Below the pieces are notes generated by a model. It ran no database searches, was not told the DNA's origin, and was given only the letters and a program-made list of their open reading frames with translations. Made by a program: the position numbers and the translations under genes. A stretch of 64,000 nucleotides of DNA from a virus: positions 4,253 to 68,252 of the IMG/VR virus record IMGVR_UViG_3300026518_000007, one strand, 5' to 3'. Shown here one piece after another: positions 1 to 64,000 of the stretch (position 1 is its first letter; every line of letters starts with the position of its first letter).

Positions 1-25
1 TGTTATTAAATAAGGATTTTTAAAA

Positions 26-643
26 ATGAGTAATAAATATAGTATAACGACATATAGAAATTTAATTAAAGAAGATATATATTTAAAAGGTATAATCGAT
101 ATAGGCTATAGTTTTAAATATAAAGGACCTGTATATGTATGGGCTAAATTAACTAAGAAAAAAATTAATAATAATAATATTAAAAAAAGACCTTGTTTCT
201 ATAGTGATAAAAGAATACCTAAACAGTATAGAAGTTATGTTAGCGATTATTTAAATAGTGGTTATGATAGAGGACATTTAATAAGTGATGCCTCTTTCGA
301 TAATAATAAAGAGAATTTAAAAGCAGTATATAAGTTAAGTAATATAGTACCACAGACACCATATCTTAATAGATATGTATGGAAAGGTATAGAACGTTAT
401 AGCAGATATGTCACTAATGTTTTAGGATATACCTATGTGATGAATATACTAATATATAAAGATGGTAAGATAGGTAATGGCATAGGCGTACCATACATCA
501 TGTTTAAGTTAATAATGAATAACAAACATAAGTTTTTAAAGGTATTTAGAGTTAGACAGGATAATATTACTAAAGGTTTAAAATATTACTTGTCCGATAT
601 AGATAGACTTAAAAAAGATATTAAAAAATATAACCAAGGATGA
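26..643 (+). CDS. DNA/RNA non-specific endonuclease (NucA/EndA, betabetaalpha-metal)
   Basis: SGYDRGHL, SNIVPQ and LNRYVW motifs; AAGGA RBS; no obvious signal peptide. Confidence 0.85.
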   Translation: MSNKYSITTYRNLIKEDIYLKGIIDIGYSFKYKGPVYVWAKLTKKKINNNNIKKRPCFYSDKRIPKQYRSYVSDYLNSGYDRGHLISDASFDNNKENLKAVYKLSNIVPQTPYLNRYVWKGIERYSRYVTNVLGYTYVMNILIYKDGKIGNGIGVPYIMFKLIMNNKHKFLKVFRVRQDNITKGLKYYLSDIDRLKKDIKKYNQG

Positions 644-647
644 AATA

Positions 648-860
648 ATGAAATGGATAGAGCTTACTAAAGAGAAATCTGATAATATCGAAAGATATGA
701 GAAAGGTATGGTGGTTGGTAATAACGTTATACTACATATAGAGACTAAATTTAGTACAGTACAGGGAATTAGTATAACTTCTACTACTACAGTTATACCC
801 GATGTTACTATAGTATTAAATAGTGGTAAATATAATATAATACCTAAAGAAGAGATATGA
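648..860 (+). CDS. hypothetical protein
   Basis: ORF tightly coupled to neighbours; AAGGA upstream. Confidence 0.6.
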   Translation: MKWIELTKEKSDNIERYEKGMVVGNNVILHIETKFSTVQGISITSTTTVIPDVTIVLNSGKYNIIPKEEI

Positions 861-3391: not shown

Positions 3392-4177
3392 ATGGGAATT
3401 AACGTAAGTGTAACTGGAAGTAGGTCTATTAAAGACAGGGCTATGGTGTTTAAAATTTTGAATACTATTAATGATATGTATACTATATCTAAAATAATAC
3501 ATGGAGGAGCATCCGGAGTAGATACTATAGCTAATGAATATGGTATTAATAAGAATATACCTATTAAAATTATTAAACCTGATTGGGATACATATGGTAA
3601 AAGTGCAGGTATGATTAGGAATAATGATATAGTTAAAATAGGTGATTTAGTATTAGCTATATATGACGGTAGTAGTAAAGGAACGCTGAATGCTATAACT
3701 ACAGCTATTCGTATTAAGAAAAATATAATGACATTTGATAATGAAGGTAAACTTAATAATAAATATTGTAGGAATATAAGAGATTTAAATTACGAGTATG
3801 AATGGAAAAGAGTAGTTAAAAGAGGAGAACCTTATTTCGAGTGTAGTAGTAGAGGTAATAAACACTATAGCGCTTTATATGCTAAAATAGATAATAAATC
3901 TATAGAGGAGATATATCAGTTAGATATTAAAGGATATAGAGGTAAAGTTGACCATTGGACTAAAGCTAAAGGTAAACCTACGTTAAATGATAATGAAGAT
4001 ACACTATATGAAGAGTATATTAAACTATGGCAAACATATTTTAAAAAACATGATGATTTATATATGAATATATTAGAGAAAGCTAAAGGTAAAATTATAA
4101 CAGATATGTTCGGGGTTAGACCTATTAATCAAGCTAGGGCTATATGCGACTTATGTAATAATGGATACATATATTAG
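3392..4177 (+). CDS. SLOG (YspA/DprA-like) domain fused to a NADAR-like domain
   Basis: N-term VTGSR, IIHGGASGVD, GMIRN, GSSKGT (SLOG); C-term ECSSRGNKHYSALYA..IEEIYQ..KG..LWQ (NADAR-like, from memory). Confidence 0.7.
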   Translation: MGINVSVTGSRSIKDRAMVFKILNTINDMYTISKIIHGGASGVDTIANEYGINKNIPIKIIKPDWDTYGKSAGMIRNNDIVKIGDLVLAIYDGSSKGTLNAITTAIRIKKNIMTFDNEGKLNNKYCRNIRDLNYEYEWKRVVKRGEPYFECSSRGNKHYSALYAKIDNKSIEEIYQLDIKGYRGKVDHWTKAKGKPTLNDNEDTLYEEYIKLWQTYFKKHDDLYMNILEKAKGKIITDMFGVRPINQARAICDLCNNGYIY

Positions 4178-5224: not shown

Positions 5225-5350
5225 ATGATGAATGTAGTTATAATATTACTATCTTACATATCTAGAATAGATGCTACTTTACTAGTATGTATTATAATAA
5301 TATTATTAAAGCTAATAAAAGAAAATACGTTAGTCCGAAGACAAATGTAA
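5225..5350 (+). CDS. 41-aa hydrophobic peptide
   Basis: MMNVVIILLSYISRIDATLLVCIIIILLKLIKENTLVRRQM; weak RBS. Confidence 0.35.
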   Translation: MMNVVIILLSYISRIDATLLVCIIIILLKLIKENTLVRRQM

Positions 5351-5370
5351 TACAAAAAAGGAAAATAAAA

Positions 5371-5955
5371 GTGAAAAAAGTAATATTATTTATATTAATG
5401 ATAAGTCCGTTATTCAGTAGTACTAATTATAACCTCATAAGACATAGTAAAACGTATATTAAAACTATTAATAATATAGAACATTTAGACTATAGACAAA
5501 GAGAATCATTGTTATATCTATATGAAAAATGTTATGAGTACGATTTAGCTAATACATGTGTAGCCATAGGTTATAAGGAATCTAGATTAGGTAAATATAT
5601 GTTTAATGACGTTACTGGTGATTATGGTCTTTTAGGAATAAATCTTAAAACATTCATGAATACTAATAACATTAAAAGAAGTTATTGGAAAGAGAGAGAG
5701 GTCGCTACTAGACTTATAACTGATAATGATTTTAATGTAAATGCATCCATAGCTAACCTAATGTTTTGGAAAAAACAGTATAAAAATAACTGGTTAAAAA
5801 TATGGGCTTCTTATAATGGAGGTTATAACCCTAACTACACATATGCTAAAGATATATTATTATACATTAAAGCATTTAAAGAGTTAATAAGAAATGATGA
5901 AGAACTCAGATATGAAGTTTTAAAAATAGAAAAAACATATACGCCGAAGCGTTAA
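5371..5955 (+). CDS. soluble lytic transglycosylase (SLT) with N-terminal signal peptide
   Basis: AIGYKES (catalytic Glu), GLLGIN and ASYNGG motifs; GTG start behind AAGGA gives signal-like MKKVILFILMISPLFS. Confidence 0.8.
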   Translation: MKKVILFILMISPLFSSTNYNLIRHSKTYIKTINNIEHLDYRQRESLLYLYEKCYEYDLANTCVAIGYKESRLGKYMFNDVTGDYGLLGINLKTFMNTNNIKRSYWKEREVATRLITDNDFNVNASIANLMFWKKQYKNNWLKIWASYNGGYNPNYTYAKDILLYIKAFKELIRNDEELRYEVLKIEKTYTPKR

Positions 5956-7699: not shown

Positions 7700-7739
7700 G
7701 TTAGCTTAAGCTAACCTATATGCTTACTCTTTTTTTTTT
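7693..7739. terminator. 30-bp perfect palindrome between convergent genes
   Basis: CATATAGGTTAGCTT/AAGCTAACCTATATG; T-tract at 7730-7739. Confidence 0.8.
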
Positions 7740-8961
7740 AATCTTTTAAACTTCTTAAAAATATATAATTAATATATATTAATGCTAATGTAGTTAATAC
7801 CCAGCTAGTTTTTTTACCAGTACATATTTTAGCTTCCGTAGCTAGGTAATCTTTTATATTAGTCATAGTCTCGTTTTTAACTTTACTAGATGAAAAATAA
7901 TATCTTATAAGTATAAGAGCTTTAGGTATATATTCTCTTTTCTCTATATTTATATCACTTCTTTGTAAATACTCGAATGATATAAGTATTATATCTTCAA
8001 CTACTTTTAATAATTTATCTGTATCTTTTATCTTATCAGGATTAGATATACATTTTAAGAATTTATATACGGTATCTTTTTCTATATTGTTAAATAATGA
8101 AGTTACAATATCAACTGTTTCTATATCTATAAAATCATTAGTTTGTAAAGCTATAGATTTTATATTATTAATATATCTACCAGCGCCTCCTGTTAATGAT
8201 TTCATTTGTGTTTCATTGTTTTCACCGCCAGTGAATGTAGATGATTCTTGTATGACAGCAGATGACTCTTCAGTTACTTTAGCTAGTACTCTATAGATAT
8301 ATTTTATCTGTCCTCTAAGTTTAGTTTGTATACCTGATAATATGCGTATACTATCTAAGGTATCTAATTTAACAAATCTTTTATACATAGGGTTTTTAGG
8401 ATTTAAACAATTATCTACTCTATGCATAAACGCTTCTTGCCAGCTATTAACTTGTTTAATTAAAAACTTATGAGATAAATTATTATAGACTGTGGTAGCT
8501 ATGCTTTCTGGTACTGTGAATTTAAAATTATTATAATAAAGAGAAGAGAACATTCTATATTGTATTAACAGGCAAATTTCTTTAATACCGGCATCTTTAT
8601 CGTCTCTAGTTAACGTTTTATCTATTTCATATAGATGTCCTAAATACGTCAATGTTTGATAGATTATATTACTAGCTATTTTAAAGTTCTTCTTAACTCC
8701 GGGAACGTTATAGATATCTTTTTGTAATATATCTCTATTAGTAACATTTAAAACATCTATCATTAGCATATCGTCATCTAGCGCAGAGAACACTATCTTA
8801 TGTACTCCTAATAGATTACTTCCTAAGAAATCTATATATTCATCGGACTTAGTAGACCAATTTAATCTAAACTCTTTTAATTGTCTAGTCATCGATTTAC
8901 TAGCTTTTAAATCAGGTACATTAGTTTTAAAAAACATTTTTATATCTTTATACTTACTCAT
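7738..8961 (-). CDS. conserved phiKZ-like virion structural protein (gp32-like)
   Basis: FLGSNLLGVHKIVF, KIASN, LSHKFLIKQVNSW match a remembered family pattern. Confidence 0.65.
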   Translation of the reverse strand: MSKYKDIKMFFKTNVPDLKASKSMTRQLKEFRLNWSTKSDEYIDFLGSNLLGVHKIVFSALDDDMLMIDVLNVTNRDILQKDIYNVPGVKKNFKIASNIIYQTLTYLGHLYEIDKTLTRDDKDAGIKEICLLIQYRMFSSLYYNNFKFTVPESIATTVYNNLSHKFLIKQVNSWQEAFMHRVDNCLNPKNPMYKRFVKLDTLDSIRILSGIQTKLRGQIKYIYRVLAKVTEESSAVIQESSTFTGGENNETQMKSLTGGAGRYINNIKSIALQTNDFIDIETVDIVTSLFNNIEKDTVYKFLKCISNPDKIKDTDKLLKVVEDIILISFEYLQRSDINIEKREYIPKALILIRYYFSSSKVKNETMTNIKDYLATEAKICTGKKTSWVLTTLALIYINYIFLRSLKD

Positions 8962-9058: not shown

Positions 9059-10894
9059 ATGATACGAATGATAGATGGTAGGACTATTAGTGAAACTGAA
9101 TTAATAGATGATTTAAAAAAAGATAATATAATTAAGAATGAGCCTGATGCTGATTTATTCTCTTATTTAAGAAAATATTATACATCTTTTACACAACGTT
9201 CCATTATGGCTAATAGATTTAAAACTAAAGATAAATTAGACTTATACATTAATACTAAATTAAATACTATTATAAGTAATGAGTTTATAGAAGATAAATT
9301 ACCTTCTGTTAAAAAAGCCAGTGATGTACTTATAGATAATATAGTTAACAATAGGTTAATAGTAGTAGCTACTGATTATGATGTAGACGGAGTTACATCA
9401 GCAGTTATAGCTTATAAGATGTTCAAGAATTTATTTAAATATGATAATATAGATATCATAGTTAATAAAAGAGAGCATGGTAATGGTATTAATAACTATT
9501 TAACTAATGAACTTATAGAGTATAATAAGAAGATACCTATAGGTATGTTATATACTAGTGACCATGGAAGTCATGATAGGGTTAATTTAACTAGATTAAA
9601 AGAAGAAACTGGCATAGGAGTAGTAGTAACAGACCACCATATGTTCGATGATGAGGAAGCTCCTTTAAATATGGATGCATTCGTTAATCCTCAGATGTAT
9701 GATAATGAATTTACAGATATAACTGGAACACATGTTTCTTATTTAGTACTATTATACACATTAAGAAGATTAAAAGATGAACATCCTGAAGTAGAGATTA
9801 ATTATAATGTAGATTATTATTATTATTTATTAATATATGTAGGCATGACTACTATATCAGATTGTATGGATTTAAAATCTTATATAAATAGAAAAGTAGT
9901 TATAAAAGCATTAATAGATTTAAATAATGATACTATACAACACGATGTATTTTGGAAGCATATATTAAATAAGGTTGTTACATCATACGTGGTGGATGAA
10001 AGTACGTTAAGTTATAATGTTATACCTATGCTAAACACACCTGGTAGAATAGCTGACCCTAGATTATCATATGAACTTATGATATCAGAAGACCCTTTAA
10101 AAACTATAGATTTATATAACGATATAAAAGAGCTTAATGAAGAACGTAAAGATAAACAATCTATCGTAGTTAACTCTACTAAAAAAGAAGAGTATAGTAA
10201 TGATGTAGTTAAGGTCATGATGATAGAAGATAGTGAAGGTATACAAGGTATAGTAGCTAATAACGTTATGTATAATGAAGATTATAAAGTAGTTATATGT
10301 TTTACTAAGAAGAAGACTAAAGATGGTTTCATTTATATAGGTTCTGGTAGAGCGCAAGATGAAGAGATAAATATTAATAATATTTTAACTAGTATAGCAG
10401 AGTCATCCGATATCATCATACAACATGGTGGACATAAAAGTGCCATCGGCGCTAAAATAAAACCTGATTTAAAAAGATTCTATGATGCCTTAGTTAGTGA
10501 GATAAATAAGAAGAAAATATCTAAGATAGAGTATACTTATGTAGATGATTATATATACAGTATGAAGAAACTTATACTTAATATATTCGACATCATAGAG
10601 TTAGGACCTTATGGTATAGGATTTGAAAAACCATTATATGCTAGTGATTTTATTATAGTTAGTTACCGTATATTTAAAAAAGGTAATTATTATATATCTA
10701 TGAAAATAAAACTTAATAATAGCAGTAATAGTATTATAAGTGGTTTTAGTACTATTAAAGAAAAAGATTTAGATTATATAGAAGAAAACTTGTTGAAGAA
10801 TAAGAATGTCAGATTAGTATATTCTTTAAATGTTAATAGCTACAGAAACCTTAATAGTATACAGCTCAATATTGAGAAAATAATATTCATATAG
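9059..10894 (+). CDS. recJ: RecJ ssDNA 5'-3' exonuclease (DHH/DHHA1)
   Basis: TDYDVDG, SDHG, TDHH, TISD, NTPGR and HGGH motifs. Confidence 0.9.
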   Translation: MIRMIDGRTISETELIDDLKKDNIIKNEPDADLFSYLRKYYTSFTQRSIMANRFKTKDKLDLYINTKLNTIISNEFIEDKLPSVKKASDVLIDNIVNNRLIVVATDYDVDGVTSAVIAYKMFKNLFKYDNIDIIVNKREHGNGINNYLTNELIEYNKKIPIGMLYTSDHGSHDRVNLTRLKEETGIGVVVTDHHMFDDEEAPLNMDAFVNPQMYDNEFTDITGTHVSYLVLLYTLRRLKDEHPEVEINYNVDYYYYLLIYVGMTTISDCMDLKSYINRKVVIKALIDLNNDTIQHDVFWKHILNKVVTSYVVDESTLSYNVIPMLNTPGRIADPRLSYELMISEDPLKTIDLYNDIKELNEERKDKQSIVVNSTKKEEYSNDVVKVMMIEDSEGIQGIVANNVMYNEDYKVVICFTKKKTKDGFIYIGSGRAQDEEININNILTSIAESSDIIIQHGGHKSAIGAKIKPDLKRFYDALVSEINKKKISKIEYTYVDDYIYSMKKLILNIFDIIELGPYGIGFEKPLYASDFIIVSYRIFKKGNYYISMKIKLNNSSNSIISGFSTIKEKDLDYIEENLLKNKNVRLVYSLNVNSYRNLNSIQLNIEKIIFI

Positions 10895-10959: not shown

Positions 10960-13050
10960 ATGAACATAAAAGCAGGATTAGAAACTATCTTCGAAGTTCA
11001 GAATGATGATAGTTTTATAACAGTTTTAAAAGAATTATATGTTAATTTAAAAAACATAACCATAGACTATAATGTAAATGGTGTAATTACTAAAGGCGAT
11101 TATGAAGAAGAGTTAAATACTATCATTAAGACATTTAAAGAAGACAGTACTGAAAGATTTGGTACGCCTATTATCTTAAGAAGTAGTAATACATTTGCAG
11201 TTATGCCTATCATGAATATGGATACTATGAAAAGTGGAATGGTTAGCTTTAAAAAAGATAGTAAGAAAGCCATGAAACAAATCAATGATTTTAAAAAATG
11301 GATTAGTAAGAATGAATTAGAGATAGATATAAAAAATATTAAAATAAATAATTTACCAGATGGTTTCTATTTTCCTTTATTTATAGATATTAAATCTATT
11401 TATACGACATTAGAAGAGGAGGAGTTTATAGCCATCATATTGCATGAGGTAGGCCATATCTTTACTCTATTAGAGATGTATAGTAAGACTACTGATACTA
11501 TAAGTAAATTAATAGATAGTTATTTAAAAGATTTTAGTTTAGATAAAACTATTACTAAGTTAAAGATAACTACTAATCCGTCTGATACTAAGTCAGATAC
11601 TATATATAAAATTTATGAAGCTATTTCTGACGATATGGGTATAACTGAAATAAATAATGGTAAAAGTAATGACTTTACCGATAGTGAATATGAAGCTGAT
11701 AACTTCGTAGCTTTATTTGGATATAGTGCTTATTTAACAACAGCTATTAACAAACTAACTGATATAGGAGCTTTAAAATATAGATACCTACCATTCTATC
11801 TTTTATTTGTTTTCTTATTAGATATATTAATAAGTTTAAGTTACCTATTTGTCATATTAGTCATAACAGGAACAGCCGCACAAGGTTTAGCTTTAATATT
11901 TATGATAGTTAACTTAGCCGCTATAGCTAAAATAGTTACTACTATGTATACAACTATAGAAGCACAAGGTAATAGAAACCCTACTGGTGATGAACATGGT
12001 GATGTTATGACAAGATATAAAAAAATAAGAATAGATATATTAAAAATAGTAAGAACACAACAGTTAGATAAGAAAGAATTAAATGCTTTAATTAAGCAAT
12101 TGGATATAGTAGATAAATCTATAACTGAAGTAGAGCAAACTCTTTTAAGTAGCTTGTTAGGTAGCTTAATATCACCTTTATTTAATATAAATATAAATAC
12201 TAGAGAACAGTTAGTTATGCTAATAGATAATTTAATCAATAATGAACAGCATCTCATGGCTAGTAAGTTTAAGAATGGATTAGAATATATGCGTGAGAAT
12301 GTCATAAATGTATCTAATACTAAATATTATACAGAAGTCGATATATGGAGTGATTATATTAAAAAATTGCTTATAGGCAATATTACAGCTTTAGAAAAAA
12401 TAAATAATAAAATAAATAAATATGGTTTAAGATTATTTTATAATAATACTAAACTAATGATAGAGAGTAACAGCATTGTTAATATTAAATCAGGTATATC
12501 GGGTTTTGGAGTATGGAAGATGAAAGGAAATACTACTGATGTTAAATCTGTTGTGAGTATTACCATAGATAGTGATAAAGTAGTATGGCAATTATTAAAT
12601 CCATATATTAAAGTATACGATATAGATTATATAGAAGTTAATAAAGTTAAAAATATGTATATAATGGAATTAGAATATCTATCTCCAGTATTAGATAAAA
12701 AACAAACTAAAGAGGTTTATGATATAGGTAAAGCTTTAGATAGTATTTATACGGATATAGGTATTAAGAATATAGATGATACTATATCTGCTTATTTTAA
12801 GTATTTTAAAGATAATAAAATAAAACTTAGTAAAGAAGTAGAAGAACAGTTTAATTTAATAAAAGAAGTTATTAATAAATTAGATTTTAAAGATAGAGCA
12901 TTAACATTAGATTTACATAAAGATAATTGGGGAATTAATGAGGATAAAAAGTTAGTTATGTTCGACCCTATATATGATAGAAACGGATTAGCGTTAGAAA
13001 CTAATAATAAGATAGATTTAAAACAATATAGCGATAACTTAAGCAAATAA
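10960..13050 (+). CDS. phiKZ-like head protein with HExxH, fused to a C-terminal protein-kinase-like domain
   Basis: LHEVGH, EYEADNF, TM block, then NGLE followed by SGISGFGVW, DLHKDNW and LVMFDP kinase-like motifs; paralog of 58367-59836. Confidence 0.7.
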   Translation: MNIKAGLETIFEVQNDDSFITVLKELYVNLKNITIDYNVNGVITKGDYEEELNTIIKTFKEDSTERFGTPIILRSSNTFAVMPIMNMDTMKSGMVSFKKDSKKAMKQINDFKKWISKNELEIDIKNIKINNLPDGFYFPLFIDIKSIYTTLEEEEFIAIILHEVGHIFTLLEMYSKTTDTISKLIDSYLKDFSLDKTITKLKITTNPSDTKSDTIYKIYEAISDDMGITEINNGKSNDFTDSEYEADNFVALFGYSAYLTTAINKLTDIGALKYRYLPFYLLFVFLLDILISLSYLFVILVITGTAAQGLALIFMIVNLAAIAKIVTTMYTTIEAQGNRNPTGDEHGDVMTRYKKIRIDILKIVRTQQLDKKELNALIKQLDIVDKSITEVEQTLLSSLLGSLISPLFNININTREQLVMLIDNLINNEQHLMASKFKNGLEYMRENVINVSNTKYYTEVDIWSDYIKKLLIGNITALEKINNKINKYGLRLFYNNTKLMIESNSIVNIKSGISGFGVWKMKGNTTDVKSVVSITIDSDKVVWQLLNPYIKVYDIDYIEVNKVKNMYIMELEYLSPVLDKKQTKEVYDIGKALDSIYTDIGIKNIDDTISAYFKYFKDNKIKLSKEVEEQFNLIKEVINKLDFKDRALTLDLHKDNWGINEDKKLVMFDPIYDRNGLALETNNKIDLKQYSDNLSK

Positions 13051-13055
13051 CATTC

Positions 13056-13103
13056 ATACACATTACCTGTGATGGGTAATGTGTATATGAATATTTTTTT
13101 TTT
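13056..13103 (+). terminator. hairpin terminator
   Basis: ATACACATTACC/GGTAATGTGTAT; T10 at 13094-13103. Confidence 0.75.
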
Positions 13104-13203
13104 ACTATGTGTGTTAATATTGAATTAAATATTGTCGAAGATGACCACAGTTAAATATAACATTATTGCATCAGTGTAGAAATATACTTGACCTAGTGTT
13201 GTT

Positions 13204-13408
13204 GCGCTCACTGCCATCTAGAGTACCTGTGAGGTGTATTCGTCCCATGACATAGCTTGTAGCTTATATCACTGGTCCTTGGAAAGGGACTGGTGATATA
13301 AGTAGTAGCGATACAAGTATCAATTCCAGCAGTTACTGGAACAGTGGGGGAAACGGGGGCAGGGTTTAAATACCTTATGGGTGGTGGTTGGGCGCTGGTG
13401 GTGAGCGT
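13204..13408 (+). ncRNA. candidate structured non-coding RNA, unknown class
   Basis: 49% GC island; 13-bp closing helix 13204-16/13396-408 with 3 G-U; 18-bp stem 13263-13302 capped by a GGAA tetraloop; no ORF. Confidence 0.55.
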
Positions 13409-13581
13409 TAAATATTAATGTTAAATATTAATGTTAATAATAGACAATAGTCTAATGTTATTATAGTGTTAAATATATATGATAATAAAATAATGATATA
13501 AGAGTGATAATAGATTACTATTAGACTATTGTTAATAATATATGATAGATAGATATAGACCAATATTAGACTATTGTTAAT
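13407..13581. repeat. AT-rich tandem and iteron-like repeats
   Basis: GTTAAATATTAAT x2 (13407-13432); TATTAGACTATTGTTAAT at 13519 and 13564; inverted 13-mer at 13444. Confidence 0.7.
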
Positions 13582-49136: not shown

Positions 49137-49146
49137 GAGTTAGAAA

Positions 49147-52465: not shown

Positions 52466-53014
52466 ATGGATATATATACATACGTAGAAGAGGCTAAGAA
52501 AACTGAGTCTATTAAACAACCACTTAAAGAATTAGTTGTAGAAGATACTGGATTAACGAATCGTATGTTGCATTCGATTATGGGAATTGTTACAGAGTCT
52601 ACTGAAATAATGGCAGCAGCACGCGCTAATGATAGAGTTAATTTTTTAGAAGAGTGCGGTGATACATTTTGGTATCTAGCTATTTTAGCAGATGAGTTAG
52701 ATATTGTAAGTGAGCTAGAAAATATAGATGATTTTGAACCAGCTGTTAAAGAGAGAACTGATTTATTAGATGTTTGTAAAAAAGCTCTATTTTATGGCTC
52801 TAAAGTAAATTTAGATGTTTTTAAACTAGAAACTATTAAAATGTATAAAGGCATTTGCTCATCTGTAGAGATAAATGGCGGAGATGTTGAAACTGTACAA
52901 CTTACCAACATCAAAAAATTAAAAGCTAGATACCCTGATAAGTTCACTGATAGAGATGCTGAAAATAGAGATTTAACTAAAGAGCGTGAGATACTTGAAG
53001 ACGGTCTTAACTAA
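52466..53014 (+). CDS. mazG: MazG-like nucleotide pyrophosphohydrolase
   Basis: GIVTESTE, EECGDTFWY, NIKKLKARYPDKF. Confidence 0.88.
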   Translation: MDIYTYVEEAKKTESIKQPLKELVVEDTGLTNRMLHSIMGIVTESTEIMAAARANDRVNFLEECGDTFWYLAILADELDIVSELENIDDFEPAVKERTDLLDVCKKALFYGSKVNLDVFKLETIKMYKGICSSVEINGGDVETVQLTNIKKLKARYPDKFTDRDAENRDLTKEREILEDGLN

Positions 53015-53026
53015 AGGACATATGTA

Positions 53027-54067
53027 ATGTATATAATATATAAGCAGATATTTGAAGAAGGTTATGTTAGAGAGATTTCTAATAAATTAGGTTTGGAATA
53101 TGCAGAATTTAATTCTTCCGAAGATAACCGTATACGTATAGCTACGAGTATAGCGGCCGTTAGTAGAGGTAAAGATAATGCTAATAGCCCTAAAAAAAGA
53201 TATAGTAGCTTATTAGCAGAAGCAGCGCCTAATATATCTATTAATGATATAGAAAAAAGTAATAAGACTATTAGTAATAAAGCAGGTAGACCTATAGAAT
53301 ATATTCCCGTTATCCTAGATGCTAGGTTAAGTAAAAAAGTAATAGGTGATGAAAATGAAGTATTCTATTTATTATCATCTACCGATATAGAAAATTTTGA
53401 TGAGCCTATACAAGTTTCTTTAGATGTATTCCTAAATGAGATAATGCCGTATAGTTATTTAGAAGGCAACATCCTATATACTAATCTAAGAGCTTTAGTA
53501 AACGCGGGTATAGACTATGAACTTATACCATATGGTGAAGTATATAATTATAGAGCCGTAGAAGTAAAAGCTCCATATTTTGTATTCGCACAAATAAGAA
53601 CGCATTCTAGAATATCACAGATAGCTCTTTCTGAAAGAGTAGTAACTGAAGATGAGTATTGGTTACCTGATGATATTTTAGTTAGGATTAAAGATAGATT
53701 AGATATTTCATTTATAGAAAACAATAATCTAAACTGTATAGGTTGTGAAAATTGTAAATATGGTAAACGTTTATTAGATGCTAGAATTATTGAAGATGTG
53801 GTTGATATATTCTTAGAATTATCCCCTAAATTAGTACAGAAAATAATGAAGCATTTAGGTTATCATAAAGAGATATATAATAGGTGGCCTAACCATCTTA
53901 AGTATAAAACATGGATAATGGGCGGTTATACTAATGACCCTAAAGCATGGGGACATTTCCTATTAGAGAGAGAAGTATTTCCAGATATCTGTAAATCATG
54001 GGTTCAAGCTGAAACAAAAATAACAGCTGAAGCCATAGGTGACATTATAATGGGCGATATAGATTAG
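53027..54067 (+). CDS. thyX: divergent ThyX-like flavin-dependent thymidylate synthase
   Basis: AAVSRG, PIEY, APYFVFAQIRTHSRISQIALSER (ThyX spacing with RHR replaced by THS), QAET. Confidence 0.65.
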   Translation: MYIIYKQIFEEGYVREISNKLGLEYAEFNSSEDNRIRIATSIAAVSRGKDNANSPKKRYSSLLAEAAPNISINDIEKSNKTISNKAGRPIEYIPVILDARLSKKVIGDENEVFYLLSSTDIENFDEPIQVSLDVFLNEIMPYSYLEGNILYTNLRALVNAGIDYELIPYGEVYNYRAVEVKAPYFVFAQIRTHSRISQIALSERVVTEDEYWLPDDILVRIKDRLDISFIENNNLNCIGCENCKYGKRLLDARIIEDVVDIFLELSPKLVQKIMKHLGYHKEIYNRWPNHLKYKTWIMGGYTNDPKAWGHFLLEREVFPDICKSWVQAETKITAEAIGDIIMGDID

Positions 54068-54132: not shown

Positions 54133-55086
54133 ATGTTAAATATATACGACGGCACATTAGGTATGCTGGCCAATATGGATAAAGTAGAGCACGAACTAAA
54201 TAAATATATATCATCTACTACTGATGATTTATCTTACGAGATTAAAGAAGATAAATCTAAAGTAGTTATCATCACTGGTAAGAATGAAGAAGAGAAAGAA
54301 TTACCTATATGGGGTAATCCATTAATCTTTAAAGATGTTAGAGGTAATGATGTCGTAGCTGTCGACCTTAGACCATATATGAAAGCTAAGCTGGACGATA
54401 TGATTGTAGTAACCGATATGCTACAAGATAAATATAATGGCATGATGCAGTTATATAGGTTAGTATTCACTAAGCTTATGTTAGATGATGATATAGCATG
54501 GTTATCATCTGTTAATCTTTTTATAGAAGAGTCATTCGCATCTATAATAACAACAACTACGACTATGATGACATTTGATAATTCTATAGCTGATAAAGTT
54601 AATATAATAGCTAAGCTTCATTATTTAACTATGGATGAAGAGGAGCTATCTAAGATAGAGGACTACATATATAGATTACCTAAGAGTGACATAAATGCTT
54701 TAGTTAAAGGAGACCTTAAAGATTTAGGTAATGCTTTAATAACTAAATTCAGAGCAGGTGAACTTATGTTTCCTAGTAGAACTATTGGTTCTTTAGTAGA
54801 GAATATTAAAGTACTGTTAGATACTCCTAGAACAGATGGATTAGAACCCGATTTATATTTACAGACATTAAGTAGAAGTTTCTATAGTATGGATAGTAAA
54901 AGTTTAAGTATAGGGTTTATAGAAAATAAGCCTACACTATTAGCTGTTCTGATTATGGTTACTACAGAAGGTATTAATAGTAAATCTAGTTTACGTAAAA
55001 TACTTAATAGTAATAAGCGCGCATGTAAGCCGAATGAAACAGCCAAAACATTAATGGAAGTATATAAAGACCAGATACTGAGTTAG
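54133..55086 (+). CDS. conserved phiKZ-like protein (gp52-like)
   Basis: LPIWGNPL, VAVDLRPY, ENKPTL pattern; near chimallin and PolB. Confidence 0.6.
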   Translation: MLNIYDGTLGMLANMDKVEHELNKYISSTTDDLSYEIKEDKSKVVIITGKNEEEKELPIWGNPLIFKDVRGNDVVAVDLRPYMKAKLDDMIVVTDMLQDKYNGMMQLYRLVFTKLMLDDDIAWLSSVNLFIEESFASIITTTTTMMTFDNSIADKVNIIAKLHYLTMDEEELSKIEDYIYRLPKSDINALVKGDLKDLGNALITKFRAGELMFPSRTIGSLVENIKVLLDTPRTDGLEPDLYLQTLSRSFYSMDSKSLSIGFIENKPTLLAVLIMVTTEGINSKSSLRKILNSNKRACKPNETAKTLMEVYKDQILS

Positions 55087-55165: not shown

Positions 55166-57292
55166 ATGAAAAAAATAAGCAAGTATTTTAAAAATAAGCC
55201 AGAATTTTATGTGAATGATGTTGACCCAATAAGACATTATTTAGAAATAGGTAATTACTTTTTAAAAACTATGAAAGATAGTACATTAGATTATAAAGAT
55301 AAAATAAAAACTTTTATTAAAGAAATAAAAAGCTTTAAAGACCCTACTGTCTATTTTTACGAACGGGATATTAATGGTAAAAAGAATAAAAGTAAAACAT
55401 CTTTATCTTCATATATTAAATATGTTAAAGATACTGGTGATATCATAGTACCGTCATTTACGGTATATTTTAGTAAGGATAAGAAAGCTTCACTACACGC
55501 TGACTTTATTGGGAACAATATTAAAGAGCGCTCTAAACATAAAAAGCTTGCGTTTAAATACAAGATGAATAAGCAATTCGAACAATTCGAGTATCATAAT
55601 ACCATACAGAAAGTTAAGAAGATTTTTAATAACTCATTATCAGGAGCATATGCATCAGCGGGTACTGTTTTAAATAACCCATCTGCACATTATACATTAA
55701 CATCTATAACAAGATGTGTTTCAGGAATAGGTAATGCATTAAGTGAATCTATCATATCTGGTAATAAACATTATAAGGACCCTGATGTTACATTAGAACA
55801 TTTAGTAACCATAGCTTATTCAACTCCTACTGAAGAAGTTGAACGAGTCATACATAAATATAATATTCATATACCTACGGCAGATGAGGTCATGGCTTCA
55901 GTTATTAAATCATCTAGTAAGTATTGGAGGAATTTAGAAAAAGAGAGAATAATATTTGATTTTTTAAATAGAATAGACGGATTTAAAAGAGCATTTATTT
56001 TATATAGTAATGACATGTATCATTTTAGAACATATAACCCTGACTTAATGAGAGGAGTTATAGCAGAAGCTACTACAAAAGTCCTTATAACCAAAACAGA
56101 AGAAGAGTATGATGATATTTTAAACTTAACGGATGAATGGATTTATAATACTGCTGCTCTAATGTGTATTAGTGATTTAAGAGGTAAGAAAAGGGATGAT
56201 TTTACTTTAGTAGATAAACGTAATATGGCTTCAGCTATAATTGGTTTTACTAATACTATAGATAAGTATGGTGATATATTTAAATTATTTTTAGTAACTA
56301 ATATATTTCCAGTTTCTATAACCGATATTAAAGATATGGTTAGGGAAGCTATAGTATTATCAGATACAGATAGTACTTGTTCCAGTTATGGTAGCTGGGT
56401 AGATTGGTATTTTAATAAACCTACATTTAGTGATAATGGGTTAGCCGTTAGTTCAGTTATCATTGCGTTAGTTACACAATCTATGGACCATTACATTAAA
56501 CTATTTGCAGGTAACATGAACGTTAAGTATGAAGATGCTCAATCTTTAGAAATGAAGAATGAGTTCGTATGGGATGTTTTTGTTAATACTAATGTCTCTA
56601 AACATTATTTTGCTAATGTAGTATCTCAAGAGGGTAACATTTATGCTATAGATTTAAAGAAATCATTAGAGCGTAAAGGCGTTAACTTAATAGCGCCTAA
56701 TGCATACCAGCCTATACGTGATATGGCTGAAGAGATGATGATAGATATCATGAACACTACATTTAAAAAAGAGACGGTTCCATTAACTAAATATCTTAAT
56801 AAAGTATTAGAAGCAGAAGAGATTATTAAAGACCTAGTATATAAAGGTTCGCCTGATGTTTTAAAACTTGAAAAGATAAAGGATGCTAAAGGTTATAAGA
56901 AAGGGGAATTAGAATCTCCTTATACACACTATATTTTATGGAATAAAGTTTTTAAGCCATTATACGGAGATGCACCTAAACCTACATTTATGGCTGTTAA
57001 ATTTCCTACTACCATAAATAGTAAAAATGATATGAATATATTCTTAGATAGCTGCGATGAAGAGTTCCGTAATAACTTTAAAGATTACTTAACATTAAGT
57101 GGTAAAAGTGAGATTAAGGTTTTTAGACTACCGTTAATAGTAACGCACACTAAAGGTATACCTAAAGAGTTACTACCTATTATATCTACAGATAGGGTTA
57201 TCATAGATAATTGTAGAGTTCTTTATATGGTATTAGAGACATTAGGATTTTTTATAAAACCTGATGAAACTTTAACTAATATGTTAAAATGA
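55166..57292 (+). CDS. family B DNA polymerase, polymerase-domain subunit (phiKZ gp50-like, split enzyme)
   Basis: KIFNNSLSGA (motif B), VLSDTDS (motif C), KHYFA, KGV; no exonuclease or motif A seen. Confidence 0.85.
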   Translation: MKKISKYFKNKPEFYVNDVDPIRHYLEIGNYFLKTMKDSTLDYKDKIKTFIKEIKSFKDPTVYFYERDINGKKNKSKTSLSSYIKYVKDTGDIIVPSFTVYFSKDKKASLHADFIGNNIKERSKHKKLAFKYKMNKQFEQFEYHNTIQKVKKIFNNSLSGAYASAGTVLNNPSAHYTLTSITRCVSGIGNALSESIISGNKHYKDPDVTLEHLVTIAYSTPTEEVERVIHKYNIHIPTADEVMASVIKSSSKYWRNLEKERIIFDFLNRIDGFKRAFILYSNDMYHFRTYNPDLMRGVIAEATTKVLITKTEEEYDDILNLTDEWIYNTAALMCISDLRGKKRDDFTLVDKRNMASAIIGFTNTIDKYGDIFKLFLVTNIFPVSITDIKDMVREAIVLSDTDSTCSSYGSWVDWYFNKPTFSDNGLAVSSVIIALVTQSMDHYIKLFAGNMNVKYEDAQSLEMKNEFVWDVFVNTNVSKHYFANVVSQEGNIYAIDLKKSLERKGVNLIAPNAYQPIRDMAEEMMIDIMNTTFKKETVPLTKYLNKVLEAEEIIKDLVYKGSPDVLKLEKIKDAKGYKKGELESPYTHYILWNKVFKPLYGDAPKPTFMAVKFPTTINSKNDMNIFLDSCDEEFRNNFKDYLTLSGKSEIKVFRLPLIVTHTKGIPKELLPIISTDRVIIDNCRVLYMVLETLGFFIKPDETLTNMLK

Positions 57293-58282: not shown

Positions 58283-58366
58283 ATTATTAACCTTTGTATA
58301 TATTTTCAAAATAACAGCTGTTGAATTAATGTTAATAGCTTGAATTTAACATCTAAAGGAGCCGAC

Positions 58367-59836
58367 ATGTTAACACAAGGCATCGAAAGCATTAATACAC
58401 AAACAAATACTAAATTTATATTAAGACTAAATAAAGAAGCTACAGAACTTTTTGATGAGATTAGATTAACGCTACCTGATATAGTAGGAACTAATTTCGA
58501 TAGTAAGAAAACATATAAAGAGTATGAGCATTATAAAGCAACTATGAAGGTAGATATGATATCTAAGAGATTAACTAAGATAAGTGAAATACTTAAAGAT
58601 AGATTTGGTCTTAACGTAAATATAGAAAATTCTAAAAGAAATCTTAATAGTATAACATATTTAGTAACACCTCCAATGAACTATAAAGTAATTAATATGG
58701 CTATGGATAACTTAGATAGTCTTTTTCCTAAAAAAAGAGCTAATAATATAATATGGGAGACTCTAGCTACTAAAGCAGAACAAAATAGTTATAATACTTT
58801 AAATAATTTAAAAACAGCTATATCAGAAGGTAAGTTTAAATTAGATTTTAAAAGAGCATATGTTACTGGTTTAGAAAGTTCTATTTTTACTATAAGAACA
58901 GATGTATTAGCCGCTACTGTTGTTAATCTTAATCCTGATGAATTTATTTCATTATTATTAAAAGAGATAGGTTATCTATTTTCTTATTTAGAATATATGT
59001 ATACTAGTACTAGAAATACATTAAGTCTATTAGATAATTTTATAACAGAGAAATTCTCTAAGAATAAGAATCCAATAGAGAGCTTATCTATAGCTTTAAA
59101 GAAATCAGGAACAGATACTGAGAGCGATACGGCTATAGGAGTATTAGAAGAGTTAGATGTATTTATATTAAAAACATATAGGATAGATAAGAATAAGAAC
59201 TCTGTTAAATTAGATTTACAACAAGAGTCAGATAAGTTTGTAGTTAAATTAGGATTAGCGGATACATTATCATCAGCGCTAGTTAAGATTTCTACACTAG
59301 GTACTATACGACCTAATGATACTAATTATAAAGAGATAGATAATCCTATATTAACTTTCTTATATACAGTAGTAGGATTAATAGTATTTGCTATATCGGT
59401 AGCTATATTTTCTATATTCGGTATTCTAATTTTACTATTAGTAGCTGGTGTTAAAATAGTTAGTTTCTTTTTTAGTTATTTAGCTAAGATGGTATTAACT
59501 ATCTTTAATAGAATATTTAATAATGACATAGACCAAAATATAACCTATAGAGATATAGGTAAGAGGCTTAAGAAAATAAAATTACAACTTATAAAAGAGT
59601 TACGTAGTGATGATTTAGAGAACGAAGATAAGAAATATATAATGGAACAAATAGATAACGTAAATAAGTCTATATCATTAATAGATGAACGTTTTTCTAT
59701 ATTAGGAAGATATGGTGATTCAACATTATCACTTAACTCTACACATTATGAAGAGGTCATTAATGATAGACTTGAAAACTTAGAAGATAATGAACTTTAT
59801 CTTTTAACTGAAAAATTTAAAAATATAAGGAATTAA
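58367..59836 (+). CDS. phiKZ-like head protein, HExxH-degenerate paralog of 10960-13050
   Basis: EFISLLLKEIGYLF vs EFIAIILHEVGHIF, ESDKF, TM block, RLKKIK..IK, E.NELY..KFKN; ATG 58367 behind AAGGAG. Confidence 0.7.
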   Translation: MLTQGIESINTQTNTKFILRLNKEATELFDEIRLTLPDIVGTNFDSKKTYKEYEHYKATMKVDMISKRLTKISEILKDRFGLNVNIENSKRNLNSITYLVTPPMNYKVINMAMDNLDSLFPKKRANNIIWETLATKAEQNSYNTLNNLKTAISEGKFKLDFKRAYVTGLESSIFTIRTDVLAATVVNLNPDEFISLLLKEIGYLFSYLEYMYTSTRNTLSLLDNFITEKFSKNKNPIESLSIALKKSGTDTESDTAIGVLEELDVFILKTYRIDKNKNSVKLDLQQESDKFVVKLGLADTLSSALVKISTLGTIRPNDTNYKEIDNPILTFLYTVVGLIVFAISVAIFSIFGILILLLVAGVKIVSFFFSYLAKMVLTIFNRIFNNDIDQNITYRDIGKRLKKIKLQLIKELRSDDLENEDKKYIMEQIDNVNKSISLIDERFSILGRYGDSTLSLNSTHYEEVINDRLENLEDNELYLLTEKFKNIRN

Positions 59837-60335: not shown

Positions 60336-63158
60336 TTATATTTTAATTATATTTATAGTTAAGTCAGGTTTAACTACTAAACTACCGTCTGTATATGTTA
60401 CTAATTTTTTATCTATAACGAATTTACTACTATTAACTTCATAATTTATAATATTGATATTATCATCTCTCGTTATATTCTCTATATTAACAGATAGGAT
60501 TTCGTCCCCTATATTTTCAGCTATAGTTTTCTCTATTTCGCTTATAACAGGTTCCCCTAATAAAGATGTTTGTACTATGTTAAATATAGTCTTCTCTATA
60601 TCATCTGTTAATAAGAATGATGTTTCATTATTGATGTATAAATTAACTATAGGTTTAACAAAGTTATCATATGCTATTTTATTATAGTTAATATTTAGCG
60701 TAATAGTATCTAGGTCGTTACTAGGTAAGAATTTAAATATACTATTATCTAGTAAGTTATCATTTATACTAGTTATTTCAGTATCTATGACTTTAGTTAG
60801 TTCTTTAAAGAAATCTACTCTATATGATTTATAAATATCATTATTAGTTCTTAAGAAAGAATCCTCCATTAATAATAAATCTAGATTATGTATAATTCCT
60901 AATGTGTTATCTATTATAGGTTGGTTATCTTCGTCTAATATAATATCGCCTTCTTTATGTAATACTATCTTATTTCCATTATCATCTAGTACAAATTCGC
61001 CTATATTATGTTTTATATCTAAGATTATGTCATCATCTGTACCATCTCCATCAGTATCTATATATGTTATATTAGGTAAACCATTCTCATCTAGGTTATA
61101 AACATTTTCTTTATATGTTAAATAAACATCTTCCGTATATTTCTTAAACTTACGCTCCGTGTATTCTATATAATAATTTTTATAAAGATGTGTTAGATGT
61201 ATACCAAGTGTTCCATCAAACTCTTCCTCATATAGTAATACATTAAAATCATCATCTATGATATTTATGCTATTATAAAGCACAGTATCATTTATAGCTT
61301 GGTCATTACTATATACGTCTAAAAATAATTTACTTTCTAAATCAACAGTAGCTACTTTAACCTCTCCTATATCTGTTCTAAATATTATTTCATCTTTTTC
61401 AGTTATGTAATTATCAGTTTCTAAATCTATTACTAAAGTATAGGTATTATTATTTAATACTAAATCACCTTTAAAATATATAAAGTTATTAGCATTTAAC
61501 GGTATCGATATTTGACATTTTATTTTAGTAGCATCCATACTTAATAACTCATTAGTAGGTAGAAGATTATAAACTATCCTATAGCCAGTTAAAGTTTTTA
61601 TAATGTGTCTACTATTAATAGCTATAGGTGAATTTAATTCATCATTACTAAATCTTCTCTTATAATTACTTATAGTAGGTTGGTTAACGTCATATATTCT
61701 AACATTAAGTGTATCTTTGTAATCTACTATATATTTATATAATGTAAAGAAGTATTTATTTTTATTATATTCTAAAATATCTAGATTTGTTTTAAGGATA
61801 GTAGCTTCATATGTGGTTAAAGGAGTTAGACTACTATCTTCGTTATATTTAAATATTTGAAAAGGTTCTATGACTATGATATTATCATCTATGCTTTTTA
61901 TTTTATCACTATTAATATTAGGTAAATATAGTTTTGTGTTATTATGGAAAACATCAATACTACTATATACATTGTAATCTAGATTACCAATCTCTTTATT
62001 AACTAAGAGTTCGCGTTCTAAAATAGTATTAGAAGCTTTTTTAAATGTGAAACCGCTTTCAGCTACTTTATCTTTAATGTCATAAATGGTAATAGGTACT
62101 TCATTATCGCCTGTACTATAATTTATTATCTTAGTCTTAAGTTCTTCAAAACTTAATTCATCTATACCGCCGAATGTTTTAGTGCTAGCGTTTATTACAT
62201 AGTTTATATTTTTTGTACCTATCATCCGTTCATCAGTAGTACTAGGTAACTCTATAGAGAATACGAAATCTTTACTAACGTATTTATTAATAAAAAGTTC
62301 TATATTACCTTTAGTAGTATATAGCTCTATGTTAATATAGCTATTAACCATCTTATTTAATAGATAGACGCTAGGTATTTCTATATTTAGAATATTATCC
62401 ATAGGTCTAATGATTACCGTAGGTACATTAGGGTTATACATGAAATTACTATAGGTACTATTTAAAGTAAATATGCTATTATTATTATTAACAGATTTAG
62501 TAGTTAGAAAAGTATAGCGCTCATCAGCATCTAATGTCATTGTATTTTCATATGGTTTAGATTGTATAATAGTGTCTTTATAATTGTAGTACTTAATTTG
62601 TTTAACACTTATGTTAAGCATAATCCACTCTAAACCATCGTTATCTGTAACCGTATTACTTTCTATAATGGTATCTTTATTTTCAGCAATAGGTATATCA
62701 TTAGCTATTAGCTTACTGAATATACTATTATTTTTATAAACTCTTACATAAATATCGTTAAGTATCGTAAATACAGTATCAGCTACAGTTATATTAGAAA
62801 ACTTAGGAATAATGATTTCGCTATAAGTTCCTGTATTTTTACCATACAATTCTAAATCTTTTTTATTTATATGTAGATTAAAGAAAGCCTTACTAGGAAC
62901 ACTAAAGATATCTAATATTTCACTAGAGTTTATATGTGGGTATAAATCTTCTTTATTTTTAGCTAAATAAGGATACATTTTTCGCATAGTTATTTTAGTA
63001 TCCTGTAGAGCTGCGCTTGTTACTAAAGCATTATTCTCTAATAAAAATGTAAATGGGTTAGTAGGGTCTGGTAGGTCTATTTCATTATTTAAACCTTTAG
63101 ATAAAAGTTCTAAAGATTTAACCTGTATCATATTTGGGTCATAGATATATTTATTCAT
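60336..63158 (-). CDS. baseplate wedge-like structural protein (phiKZ gp27-like)
   Basis: DPTNPFTFLLE, RKMYP.LA..KEDLY.H, FS.PS, IELYTTKG, GG.DELSFEELK. Confidence 0.8.
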   Translation of the reverse strand: MNKYIYDPNMIQVKSLELLSKGLNNEIDLPDPTNPFTFLLENNALVTSAALQDTKITMRKMYPYLAKNKEDLYPHINSSEILDIFSVPSKAFFNLHINKKDLELYGKNTGTYSEIIIPKFSNITVADTVFTILNDIYVRVYKNNSIFSKLIANDIPIAENKDTIIESNTVTDNDGLEWIMLNISVKQIKYYNYKDTIIQSKPYENTMTLDADERYTFLTTKSVNNNNSIFTLNSTYSNFMYNPNVPTVIIRPMDNILNIEIPSVYLLNKMVNSYINIELYTTKGNIELFINKYVSKDFVFSIELPSTTDERMIGTKNINYVINASTKTFGGIDELSFEELKTKIINYSTGDNEVPITIYDIKDKVAESGFTFKKASNTILERELLVNKEIGNLDYNVYSSIDVFHNNTKLYLPNINSDKIKSIDDNIIVIEPFQIFKYNEDSSLTPLTTYEATILKTNLDILEYNKNKYFFTLYKYIVDYKDTLNVRIYDVNQPTISNYKRRFSNDELNSPIAINSRHIIKTLTGYRIVYNLLPTNELLSMDATKIKCQISIPLNANNFIYFKGDLVLNNNTYTLVIDLETDNYITEKDEIIFRTDIGEVKVATVDLESKLFLDVYSNDQAINDTVLYNSINIIDDDFNVLLYEEEFDGTLGIHLTHLYKNYYIEYTERKFKKYTEDVYLTYKENVYNLDENGLPNITYIDTDGDGTDDDIILDIKHNIGEFVLDDNGNKIVLHKEGDIILDEDNQPIIDNTLGIIHNLDLLLMEDSFLRTNNDIYKSYRVDFFKELTKVIDTEITSINDNLLDNSIFKFLPSNDLDTITLNINYNKIAYDNFVKPIVNLYINNETSFLLTDDIEKTIFNIVQTSLLGEPVISEIEKTIAENIGDEILSVNIENITRDDNINIINYEVNSSKFVIDKKLVTYTDGSLVVKPDLTINIIKI

Positions 63159-63174
63159 ATTTTTCCTTTTAATT

Positions 63175-63999
63175 TCATAATGTTAGAAGAGGGTCTTCGG
63201 TAGACATTTGACTATCACCATCTATAGTTATACCGTTAGCCTCTAGCTCATCTTGTTGCGTACTCATACCTACTGATTCGTTTAAATCATTATTAGGTAT
63301 ACCATTATCTTCCGTATCTGCATTTATTAATCTTTTATAAGTAGGACTATCTTTACTAAGTAACCATTTTAACTCATATGTTTTTAAATCAACTATAGGA
63401 TATCCTCTATTACTTAATACAGGTAAAAGGTCGTATGGTATCTCAATCATGTTACTAGTATTACCTTGTAGATATGCTCTAACTTCTGGATTAAATGCAG
63501 CTACAGTATCGTTAAAGTCTAATAACGTTAAATCATCATTTATTCTAGCTCCCATACATTTAAACGTTATGTTAATCTCTTCAGTTTGTGAAGAGTATGG
63601 TTTATCTACAGATAAGTCGAAGAATTTTCCAACTGGAACAGATGTAGGAAAAGCCGCTCCAGTACATGCCGATTTTTTAATATATCTACCGCTAGTATCC
63701 ATGACAAATCTATAGATTCTAGTATTATAATCAAATTCATTTTCAGTAACCATATCTATATATGGATATAACATACCTTCGAATACTAACGCACTATATT
63801 GCGTCCATGTTTGAAATAATGTAGTTAGTGGTTCATTAATGAAACTTTTAAATGTGGCAGATAAATCAAAGACATCAAATATCTCAAATGTTCCATCTAC
63901 CATAGCTAATTGTTCTTTTCGTAATCCTGAGTTAGAAGTAAATGTAGGTAGAGCTATATCAGGCCATCCTGATAAATTAGTTAATGTATTACTTAATAT
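63175..63999 (-). CDS. baseplate structural protein (phiKZ gp26-like), 5'-partial
   Basis: Frame open to the window edge (LSNTLTNLSGWPD..TS..G..EQ..MVDG); DYNTRIYRFVMD, AAFP. Confidence 0.8.
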   Translation of the reverse strand: MLSNTLTNLSGWPDIALPTFTSNSGLRKEQLAMVDGTFEIFDVFDLSATFKSFINEPLTTLFQTWTQYSALVFEGMLYPYIDMVTENEFDYNTRIYRFVMDTSGRYIKKSACTGAAFPTSVPVGKFFDLSVDKPYSSQTEEINITFKCMGARINDDLTLLDFNDTVAAFNPEVRAYLQGNTSNMIEIPYDLLPVLSNRGYPIVDLKTYELKWLLSKDSPTYKRLINADTEDNGIPNNDLNESVGMSTQQDELEANGITIDGDSQMSTEDPLLTL

Positions 64000-64000
64000 A

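Follow-up and report, generated by a model that had tools for sequence, protein, structure and literature searches.

A probable nucleus-forming jumbo phage lineage, divergent and very AT-rich, from deep-sea hydrothermal chimney deposits

Results

A chimallin phage in an uncultured, AT-rich genome

We analysed a 64-kb stretch of viral DNA (hereafter, the window), which corresponds to bases 4253-68252 of the linear, 99,325-bp IMG/VR record IMGVR_UViG_3300026518_000007. We consider it probable (roughly 0.8) that the window comes from the genome of an uncultured chimallivirus, that is, a phiKZ-like nucleus-forming jumbo phage, from deep-sea hydrothermal chimney deposits. The guanine-plus-cytosine (GC) content varied between 0.26 and 0.32 within the window and averaged 0.284 over the whole contig, 92% of the window was under open reading frames (ORFs), and no tRNA genes were found in it. 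CheckV placed the contig at 36% completeness, from which we expect a genome of ~275 kb; a 166.7-kb contig of the same phage is also on record.

The reading depends foremost on the shell protein and on the transcription and replication genes that accompany it, as follows (window coordinates throughout):

50563-52374, plus strand: chimallin (phage nuclear shell protein), 603 amino acids (phrog_4795 at 1.6e-27; AlphaFold2 fold)
13848-14876, plus strand: PhuZ tubulin (phrog_4733 at 3.4e-44; phiKZ gp39 at E 9e-6)
31523-32191, plus strand: virion RNA polymerase subunit, gp149 homologue (phrog_3233 at 3.2e-61; tblastn)
42592-44025, plus strand: non-virion RNA polymerase beta-prime N-terminal subunit, gp55 homologue (phrog_2987 at 1.3e-105; tblastn)
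55166-57292, plus strand: divergent family B DNA polymerase of phiKZ type, gp50 homologue (PF20286 at 1.6e-161; phylogenetic tree)
18344-18757, plus strand: SH3 domain protein associated with phage DNA polymerases, SH3DP (PF20287 at 4e-16)
28959-30383, plus strand: UvsX/RecA-like recombinase, gp152 homologue (phrog_97; 43% identity to AgentSmith gp7)
39260-40708, minus strand: RNase H-like nuclease, gp155 homologue (phrog_3265 at 8.1e-59; tblastn)
45252-47417, minus strand: SNF2-type helicase (PF00176, PF04851, PF00271)

By sequence, chimallin was the weakest identification of all. The protein had ~21% identity to annotated nuclear shell proteins (tblastn E 1e-8 to 8e-4) and no match in an hmmscan against Pfam, while precomputed matches to version.3 of PF25677 are on record for it. 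Because sequence support was weak, the identification was put to a structural test. An AlphaFold2 model built from 23 metagenomic homologues had a confident core (residues 57-552; predicted local distance difference test, pLDDT, ~90) flanked by disordered N- and C-terminal tails (1-57 and 553-603). When this model was searched against the PDB with Foldseek, the top nine matches were all chimallins, from Goslar, 201phi2-1 and PhiPA3 (E 1e-23 to 1e-21, TM-scores 0.69-0.78), and the best match to any other protein had an E of only 1e-2. The protein is thus predicted to fold as a chimallin, and the call made in a preliminary description of this DNA, which had named structural failure as grounds for withdrawing it, stands alongside the phrog_4795 match.

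The same description had listed PhuZ, both types of multisubunit RNA polymerase (RNAP) and a split family B polymerase (PolB). The first two were recovered, with one subunit gene of each RNAP inside the window; homologues of gp71 and gp74 lie further along the contig, where the RNAP subunit set is incomplete within the 99 kb. The split of PolB was not confirmed: the polymerase gene and a separate SH3DP gene are present, but a family B exonuclease domain was not found in the 99-kb contig. Beyond the window the contig also carries, by tblastn, a homologue of phiKZ gp69, the nuclear import factor according to the literature.

Several points weigh against assigning the window to a nucleus-forming phage. 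The sequence available amounts to only about a third of the genome, and genes for the major capsid protein, the terminase and the polymerase exonuclease were not found in the 99-kb contig. The chimallin scored 21.1 bits against Pfam PF25677.1, under the gathering cut-off of 27, a shortfall that, given the fold, reflects divergence rather than another fold. Finally, the phage nucleus itself is predicted here from genes and a fold model.

One twig of a large radiation without cultured members

Conserved proteins of the window were ~26-32% identical to those of every isolate chimallivirus, with best identities of ~31%, and a megablast of 24 kb of the window against 50,697 phage records returned no match. 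At the same time, 28 contig ORFs matched phiKZ (its first 200 kb) and 29 matched Bacillus phage vB_BspM_AgentSmith (MW749006) at E <1e-5, and 17 of the 23 proteins common to both comparisons scored higher against AgentSmith than against phiKZ. AgentSmith was the top isolate match for the polymerase and for the gp182 homologue, and for the tail sheath it tied with Ralstonia and Burkholderia phages. A chimallin profile built from the clade scored 175 bits against AgentSmith and 91 bits against phiKZ gp54, from which it follows that AgentSmith encodes a chimallin.

Metagenomes yielded 24 clusters of chimallin relatives, mostly at 39-53% identity and in several cases on contigs of 106-186 kb. IMG/VR yielded five relatives, all with 28-32.5% GC; a scan of that database with the single chimallin protein had retrieved nothing, and an alignment query was required to recover them. 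In a maximum-likelihood reconstruction of the DNA polymerase (19 rows, LG+C20; the outgroup, Bacillus phage BpSp, had a very long branch), four IMG/VR relatives grouped with the window in one clade (support 100/100). This clade fell within the chimallivirus ingroup as sister to AgentSmith (100/99); the backbone of the family lacked resolution. A search of 1.84 billion representative proteins then exposed 1,289 chimallins at E <=1e-3. From the best 150 of these, together with the 24-cluster relatives, AgentSmith and phiKZ gp54, we built a FastTree reconstruction, rooted arbitrarily on phiKZ gp54, in which the window was placed in a clade of 36 sequences (support 100) nested within a clade of 120 that excluded AgentSmith. 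Hence at least 120 chimallin sequences are closer to the window phage than is AgentSmith, and the lineage is one twig of a large AT-rich radiation without a cultured member, not an isolated oddity. On the available sequences, AgentSmith is the nearest cultured relative of this AT-rich branch.

These results uphold the preliminary description of a divergent, very AT-rich lineage (GC 28%), and the phage is without a close described relative; a syntenic close relative from Gammaproteobacteria, a finding that would have spoken against that description, was looked for and none was found. Membership of the Chimalliviridae is indicated by the chimallin homologue, by both multisubunit RNAPs and by the placement in marker trees. 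The family also has a 72-gene core genome in conserved blocks; in the ~36% of the genome available here, several phiKZ blocks are kept.

Conserved blocks in an altered order

Structural and other phiKZ-type genes recovered were the following:

7738-8961, minus strand: phiKZ gp32 homologue, virion protein (phrog_2921 at 4.7e-71; tblastn to phiKZ 25272-26471)
18760-20856, plus strand: phiKZ gp182 homologue, virion-associated (phrog_3181 at 1.3e-126; tblastn)
23788-24714, minus strand: phiKZ gp30 homologue, virion/tail structural protein (phrog_3185 at 1.6e-62; tblastn)
24760-26889, minus strand: tail sheath, gp29 homologue (phrog_3242 at 3.5e-153; tblastn)
32236-35157, minus strand: gp128 homologue, oriented divergently to the portal gene, like its phiKZ counterpart (phrog_3222; tblastn)
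35201-37564, plus strand: gp129 homologue, gp129 being the phiKZ portal according to the literature (phrog_3004 at 8.7e-100; tblastn)
47970-50195, plus strand: homologues of gp52 and gp42, inverted compared with both phiKZ and the relatives in the clade (phrog_3938, phrog_3179; tblastn)
54133-55086, plus strand: homologue of the gp28 vertex-binding protein, next to the polymerase (PF25614 at 3.1e-13)
60336-63158, minus strand: gp87 homologue (phrog_3248 at 3.6e-121; tblastn to phiKZ 85004-87856 only)
63175-64000, minus strand: gp88 homologue, extending past the window to 64461 (phrog_3196; tblastn to phiKZ 87968-88936)

Tail and portal genes of phiKZ type are therefore present as first described, with the gp29 and gp30 homologues at 23788-26889 and the gp129 homologue at 35201-37564. 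The claim that the phiKZ gp26-gp32 block is broken into three pieces held for its dispersal, with gp29/gp30 and gp32 lying well apart, but not for the pieces themselves, in that the segment at 60.3-64 kb encodes gp87 and gp88 and the gp28 homologue sits at 54.1 kb. Assignment of 60336-64461 to gp26-28 was rejected, there being no similarity to those proteins.

Strand switching was less unusual than had been supposed. The window has 21 switches when all ORFs of at least 45 amino acids are counted, in agreement with the ~20 originally given, but ~15 among credible genes. A manual count of annotation tables gave ~32 switches in 200 kb of phiKZ and ~38 in AgentSmith, equal to 10-12 per 64 kb, such that the window is only modestly above both and the statement that known relatives keep most genes co-oriented was too strong.

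Around chimallin, the order in the clade was gp149, gp128, gp129, gp42 (minus), gp52 (minus), chmA, gp28 and polymerase, with gp87 further on, and in some members MazG and a ThyX-like gene fell between gp28 and the polymerase. The window phage differed from its relatives in having the gp52/gp42 pair inverted, where they have gp42 and gp52 on the minus strand, and in ~9 kb inserted at 39.2-47.9 kb; past the window, the contig follows the phiKZ gene order over gp98-101 and gp62-75. Because the order is mostly common to the metagenomic relatives, the shuffling relative to phiKZ represents conserved blocks that have moved and is mostly an inherited trait of the clade, not disorder of one genome. 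We also weighed whether a chimeric contig could have generated it, given that the contig comes from a metagenomic assembly and that its gene order is unlike that of phiKZ. Apart from the sharing of block order with relatives, contigs of four further origins were collinear with it at 99.9% identity over 6.7-21.8 kb: those assembled from two samples of 2015, those of another ENA assembly, and those of a Logan assembly made from a 2005 run. This same order in all four rules out an assembly chimera for practical purposes, leaving it a vanishingly small chance.

Several smaller observations concern individual genes. The C-terminal half of a SLOG-fusion protein (3392-4177; phrog_9995) had 42.5% identity to phiKZ 79879-80241, a largely unannotated stretch right after gp82, itself annotated as a DNA polymerase, and one relative (L012) has a stand-alone copy of the phrog_9995 type (17794-18171; 62.7% identity) directly after its polymerase gene; the pattern suggests a short conserved domain that moves along with polymerase genes. 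The proteins at 10960-13050 and 58340-59836 both matched positions 16077-17555 of another relative (L009) by tblastn and look like paralogues. A gene for a 612-amino-acid protein at 27002-28840 had no match to anything. Two long non-coding gaps, at 47418-47969 (~550 bp) and 13051-13847 (~800 bp), interrupt a genome that is otherwise tightly packed.

Near-clonal persistence at one vent field

Contigs with the identical chimallin sequence came from two samples of 2015, SAMN10217895 and SAMN10217874, and from run SRR7968105, which was made from a sample of 2005. All three derive from chimney deposits at ~1,914 m in the Mariner vent field of the Eastern Lau Spreading Center, Lau Basin (Table S1 in Zhou, St. 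John, Anantharaman and Reysenbach 2022, PMC9793634). Contigs of the 2005 run were 99.99% identical to the window contig, and those of 2015 were 99.92% identical, with 15 mismatches in 21.8 kb (window 40563-62374). The same phage was therefore at Mariner in 2005 and in 2015, near-clonal across the decade, which is consistent with the reported endemism of vent viruses. A distant member of the clade (chimallin 32% identity; IMG/VR 3300026488) came from a biofilm on a thermocouple array in Guaymas Basin. Our literature search found no paper combining chimallin with hydrothermal settings, and a survey of vent viruses from the same samples mentioned neither jumbo phages nor chimallin; an entry for this contig under a chimallin or PhuZ annotation was not found there.

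Further genes and the host

Five further genes, most of which had been cited earlier as host indicators or as genes to be followed up, were examined:

26-643, plus strand: NucA-type DNA/RNA non-specific endonuclease, an accessory gene (PF01223 at 1.3e-28)
5287-5955, plus strand: T4 vs.1-like SLT lytic transglycosylase that has a signal or anchor segment at its N terminus (PF01464 at 4.8e-7)
9059-10894, plus strand: RecJ-family exonuclease, conserved in this phage clade (DHH, DHHA1 and RecJ_OB domains)
52466-53014, plus strand: MazG-like pyrophosphatase (phrog_229 at 4.1e-27)
53027-54067, plus strand: 346-amino-acid putative protein with ThyX-like motifs (visible in the alignment only)

The SLT, MazG and RecJ-family genes were present as described. 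A host-like RecJ was not substantiated. About 45 homologues, at 34-54% identity, were all located on phage-sized contigs of this clade, cellular RecJ proteins reached <=28%, and the protein scored 213 bits against the bacterial RecJ equivalog TIGR00644, under its cut-off of 396.9. It is accordingly predicted to be a RecJ-family enzyme specific to this phage clade and not host-like. GenBank lists a RecJ of the clade type (47% identity) as a hypothetical protein from a metagenome-assembled genome (MAG) labelled 'Candidatus Woesearchaeota archaeon'; the 8.3-kb contig that bears it is probably a misbinned fragment of a phage of this clade.

Nor did the proposal of ThyX in place of ThyA gain statistical support in sequence tests of 53027-54067. 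The protein had no match in Pfam, PHROGs, NCBIfam or PDB sequences or in BLASTP against the AgentSmith ThyX, hhalign against ThyX returned a probability of 0.17, and its AlphaFold2 model (pLDDT 39.5) was too poor for a fold search. Two ThyX-like motifs could be seen by eye (IRTHSRISQIALSER; WPNHL...NDPKAWGHFLLER), with the arginines of RHR replaced by THS.

With these two of its four arguments gone, the earlier suggestion of a low-GC, Campylobacterota-like host retained very low GC and the ribosome-binding site, both of which were confirmed, and it gained circumstantial support from habitat, SLT and nuclease. AAGGA preceded 68% of window genes against 1% in the background, and across the clade this register was used by 67-83% of genes compared with 13-15% in AgentSmith and phiKZ; GAGG and GGAGG are nearly absent here. 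For Campylobacter and Helicobacter, AAGGA has been reported as the consensus ribosome-binding site. In a comparison of SLT with the ESM Atlas, the nearest clusters, namely the first three when ranked by features and the first four when ranked by structure, were all commonest in Campylobacterota, a lead without statistics. The best matches of the nuclease in the phage database were Campylobacter prophages (35.7% identity, E 3e-21), followed by a next group at 5e-12.

Gene families more broadly pointed to a host with an outer membrane. SLT homologues occurred in 711 phage records, of which the ten most frequent organism names, like all 30 rows listed, were those of phages that infect Gram-negative bacteria; the SLT protein had no match among plasmids and only six relatives in a set of 5.8 billion proteins. 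As far as the tallies and the rows listed show, plasmid homologues of the nuclease came from bacteria with an outer membrane, and the MazG homologues in the phage collection from phages of such hosts. Among bacterial MAGs of these deposits Campylobacterota and Gammaproteobacteria are reported to be dominant, and 25% of the predicted hosts of viruses in the deposits are Campylobacterota.

Our best guess is thus a vent-community bacterium that is AT-rich and has an outer membrane and, within that, a member of the Campylobacterota, on the grounds of the habitat, the AAGGA site, the Campylobacterota-like SLT and the nuclease akin to Campylobacter prophages; we put the latter at slightly short of an even chance. 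The evidence on the other side is considerable. No relative came up in 185,579 species genomes, whether these were scanned with the chimallin alignment or with the SLT protein, AAGGA may be a mere reflection of AT-richness, and the Atlas result for SLT, as stated, lacks statistics.

Two further facts run counter to a Campylobacterota host and favour a low-GC Gram-positive one (Bacillota, for example vent Clostridia): the nearest cultured relative, AgentSmith, infects a Gram-positive Bacillus, with the sister relationship in the polymerase tree and the chimallin profile in agreement, and the weak matches of RecJ in the phage database were mostly to phages of Bacillota (Bacillus, Lactococcus and Listeria). 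Yet an identity of ~30% to AgentSmith is too distant for host inference, and the ribosome-binding registers are sharply unlike (GAGG before 4% of window genes versus 22% in AgentSmith, AAGGA before 68% versus 13%). Moreover, the families to which SLT, the nuclease and MazG belong indicate phages and plasmids of outer-membrane bacteria, and a lysin with a C-terminal cell-wall-binding domain was not seen in the window. A Bacillota host therefore appears improbable.

Another AT-rich outer-membrane lineage of the vents, such as Thermotogota, Aquificota, Fusobacteriota or AT-rich Gammaproteobacteria, deserves more weight than this, while still being unlikely. Many such lineages live in the habitat, and neither GC nor AAGGA nor the outer-membrane gene families single out Campylobacterota. 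The whole-proteome IVYWREL fraction of 0.406, corresponding to ~46 °C, might also be taken in its favour, but the signal vanished on orthologous aligned regions (0.393 vs 0.393), and we rejected a thermophile signature. The SLT and nuclease leads, for their part, point to Campylobacterota specifically, and it is Campylobacterota that we retain as the foremost candidate.

Discussion

By homology with phiKZ, 201phi2-1 and Goslar, from which every step is drawn, infection would begin with injection of the virion RNA polymerase together with phage DNA. Chimallin tetramers, linked via their flexible N- and C-terminal tails, would then assemble a shell around the replicating genome, and PhuZ filaments would centre it. 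Inside this shell, the phiKZ-type divergent PolB would replicate the genome and the non-virion RNAP would transcribe late genes, with the gp69 homologue possibly serving as import factor.

We know of no phage-nucleus experiments in hosts other than Gammaproteobacteria. An uncultured AT-rich branch in vent communities shows where chimalliviruses might be sought in very different cells, and chimallins at 15-20% identity to the solved ones can reveal where in the shell protein the real constraints lie. That the clade comprises the first nucleus-forming phages of Campylobacterota, or of another vent chemolithoautotroph lineage, is a tentative proposal, with the balance tilted somewhat against it. 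If it were true, the phage nucleus would operate in deep-sea hydrothermal chimney communities, with one genotype near-unchanged (99.92%) for a decade. Vent Campylobacterota such as Nautilia, Caminibacter and Sulfurimonas can be cultured, which makes a host search practical.

Comparison with known chimalliviruses

Chimalliviruses with diverse genomes have been catalogued from metagenomes, so the kind of phage described here is already known. The catalogues portray the family as widespread and diverse, with 1,103 non-redundant genomes, partly from IMG/VR, that span 27-59% GC (Prichard et al. 2023, PMC10299810; Sun 2025, PMC12625630), chimallin phages as low as 27% GC being included in the 2025 survey (PMC12625630). 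One member of the family infects a Gram-positive Bacillus species (Prichard et al. 2023, PMC10299810) and others infect Ralstonia and Burkholderia, such that the earlier contrast with a family mostly confined to Gammaproteobacteria was overstated. The main texts of the two catalogues do not mention hydrothermal vents or Campylobacterota. Three points appear to be new: the definition of the AT-rich clade, with AgentSmith as its sister; its occurrence in hydrothermal chimney deposits, with a single genotype persisting at one vent field for a decade; and the circumstantial host leads towards Campylobacterota.

Like the window phage, the model chimalliviruses phiKZ, 201phi2-1, PhiPA3, Goslar and RAY have the chimallin fold, PhuZ, two multisubunit RNAPs and a divergent PolB. 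Relative to phiKZ, the blocks gp29-30, gp128/129, gp149-152 and gp87-88 are kept in the window, as are gp62-75 and gp98-101 beyond it. Identities to the model phages are 15-21% for chimallin and 21-34% for other core proteins, the order of the blocks differs, gp28 and gp32 are displaced in the window, and the hosts of the models are Gammaproteobacteria.

AgentSmith shares with the window phage chimallin, tubulin, both RNAPs, the sheath/gp30 pair and the gp87-gp88 block, at a mean identity of ~30%. It differs in its GC content (37% versus 28%), in its ribosome-binding register (GGAG/GAGG versus AAGGA), in its terrestrial source (Davis, USA), and in keeping the divergent arrangement of gp27-gp28 and gp29-gp30 that the window phage has lost.

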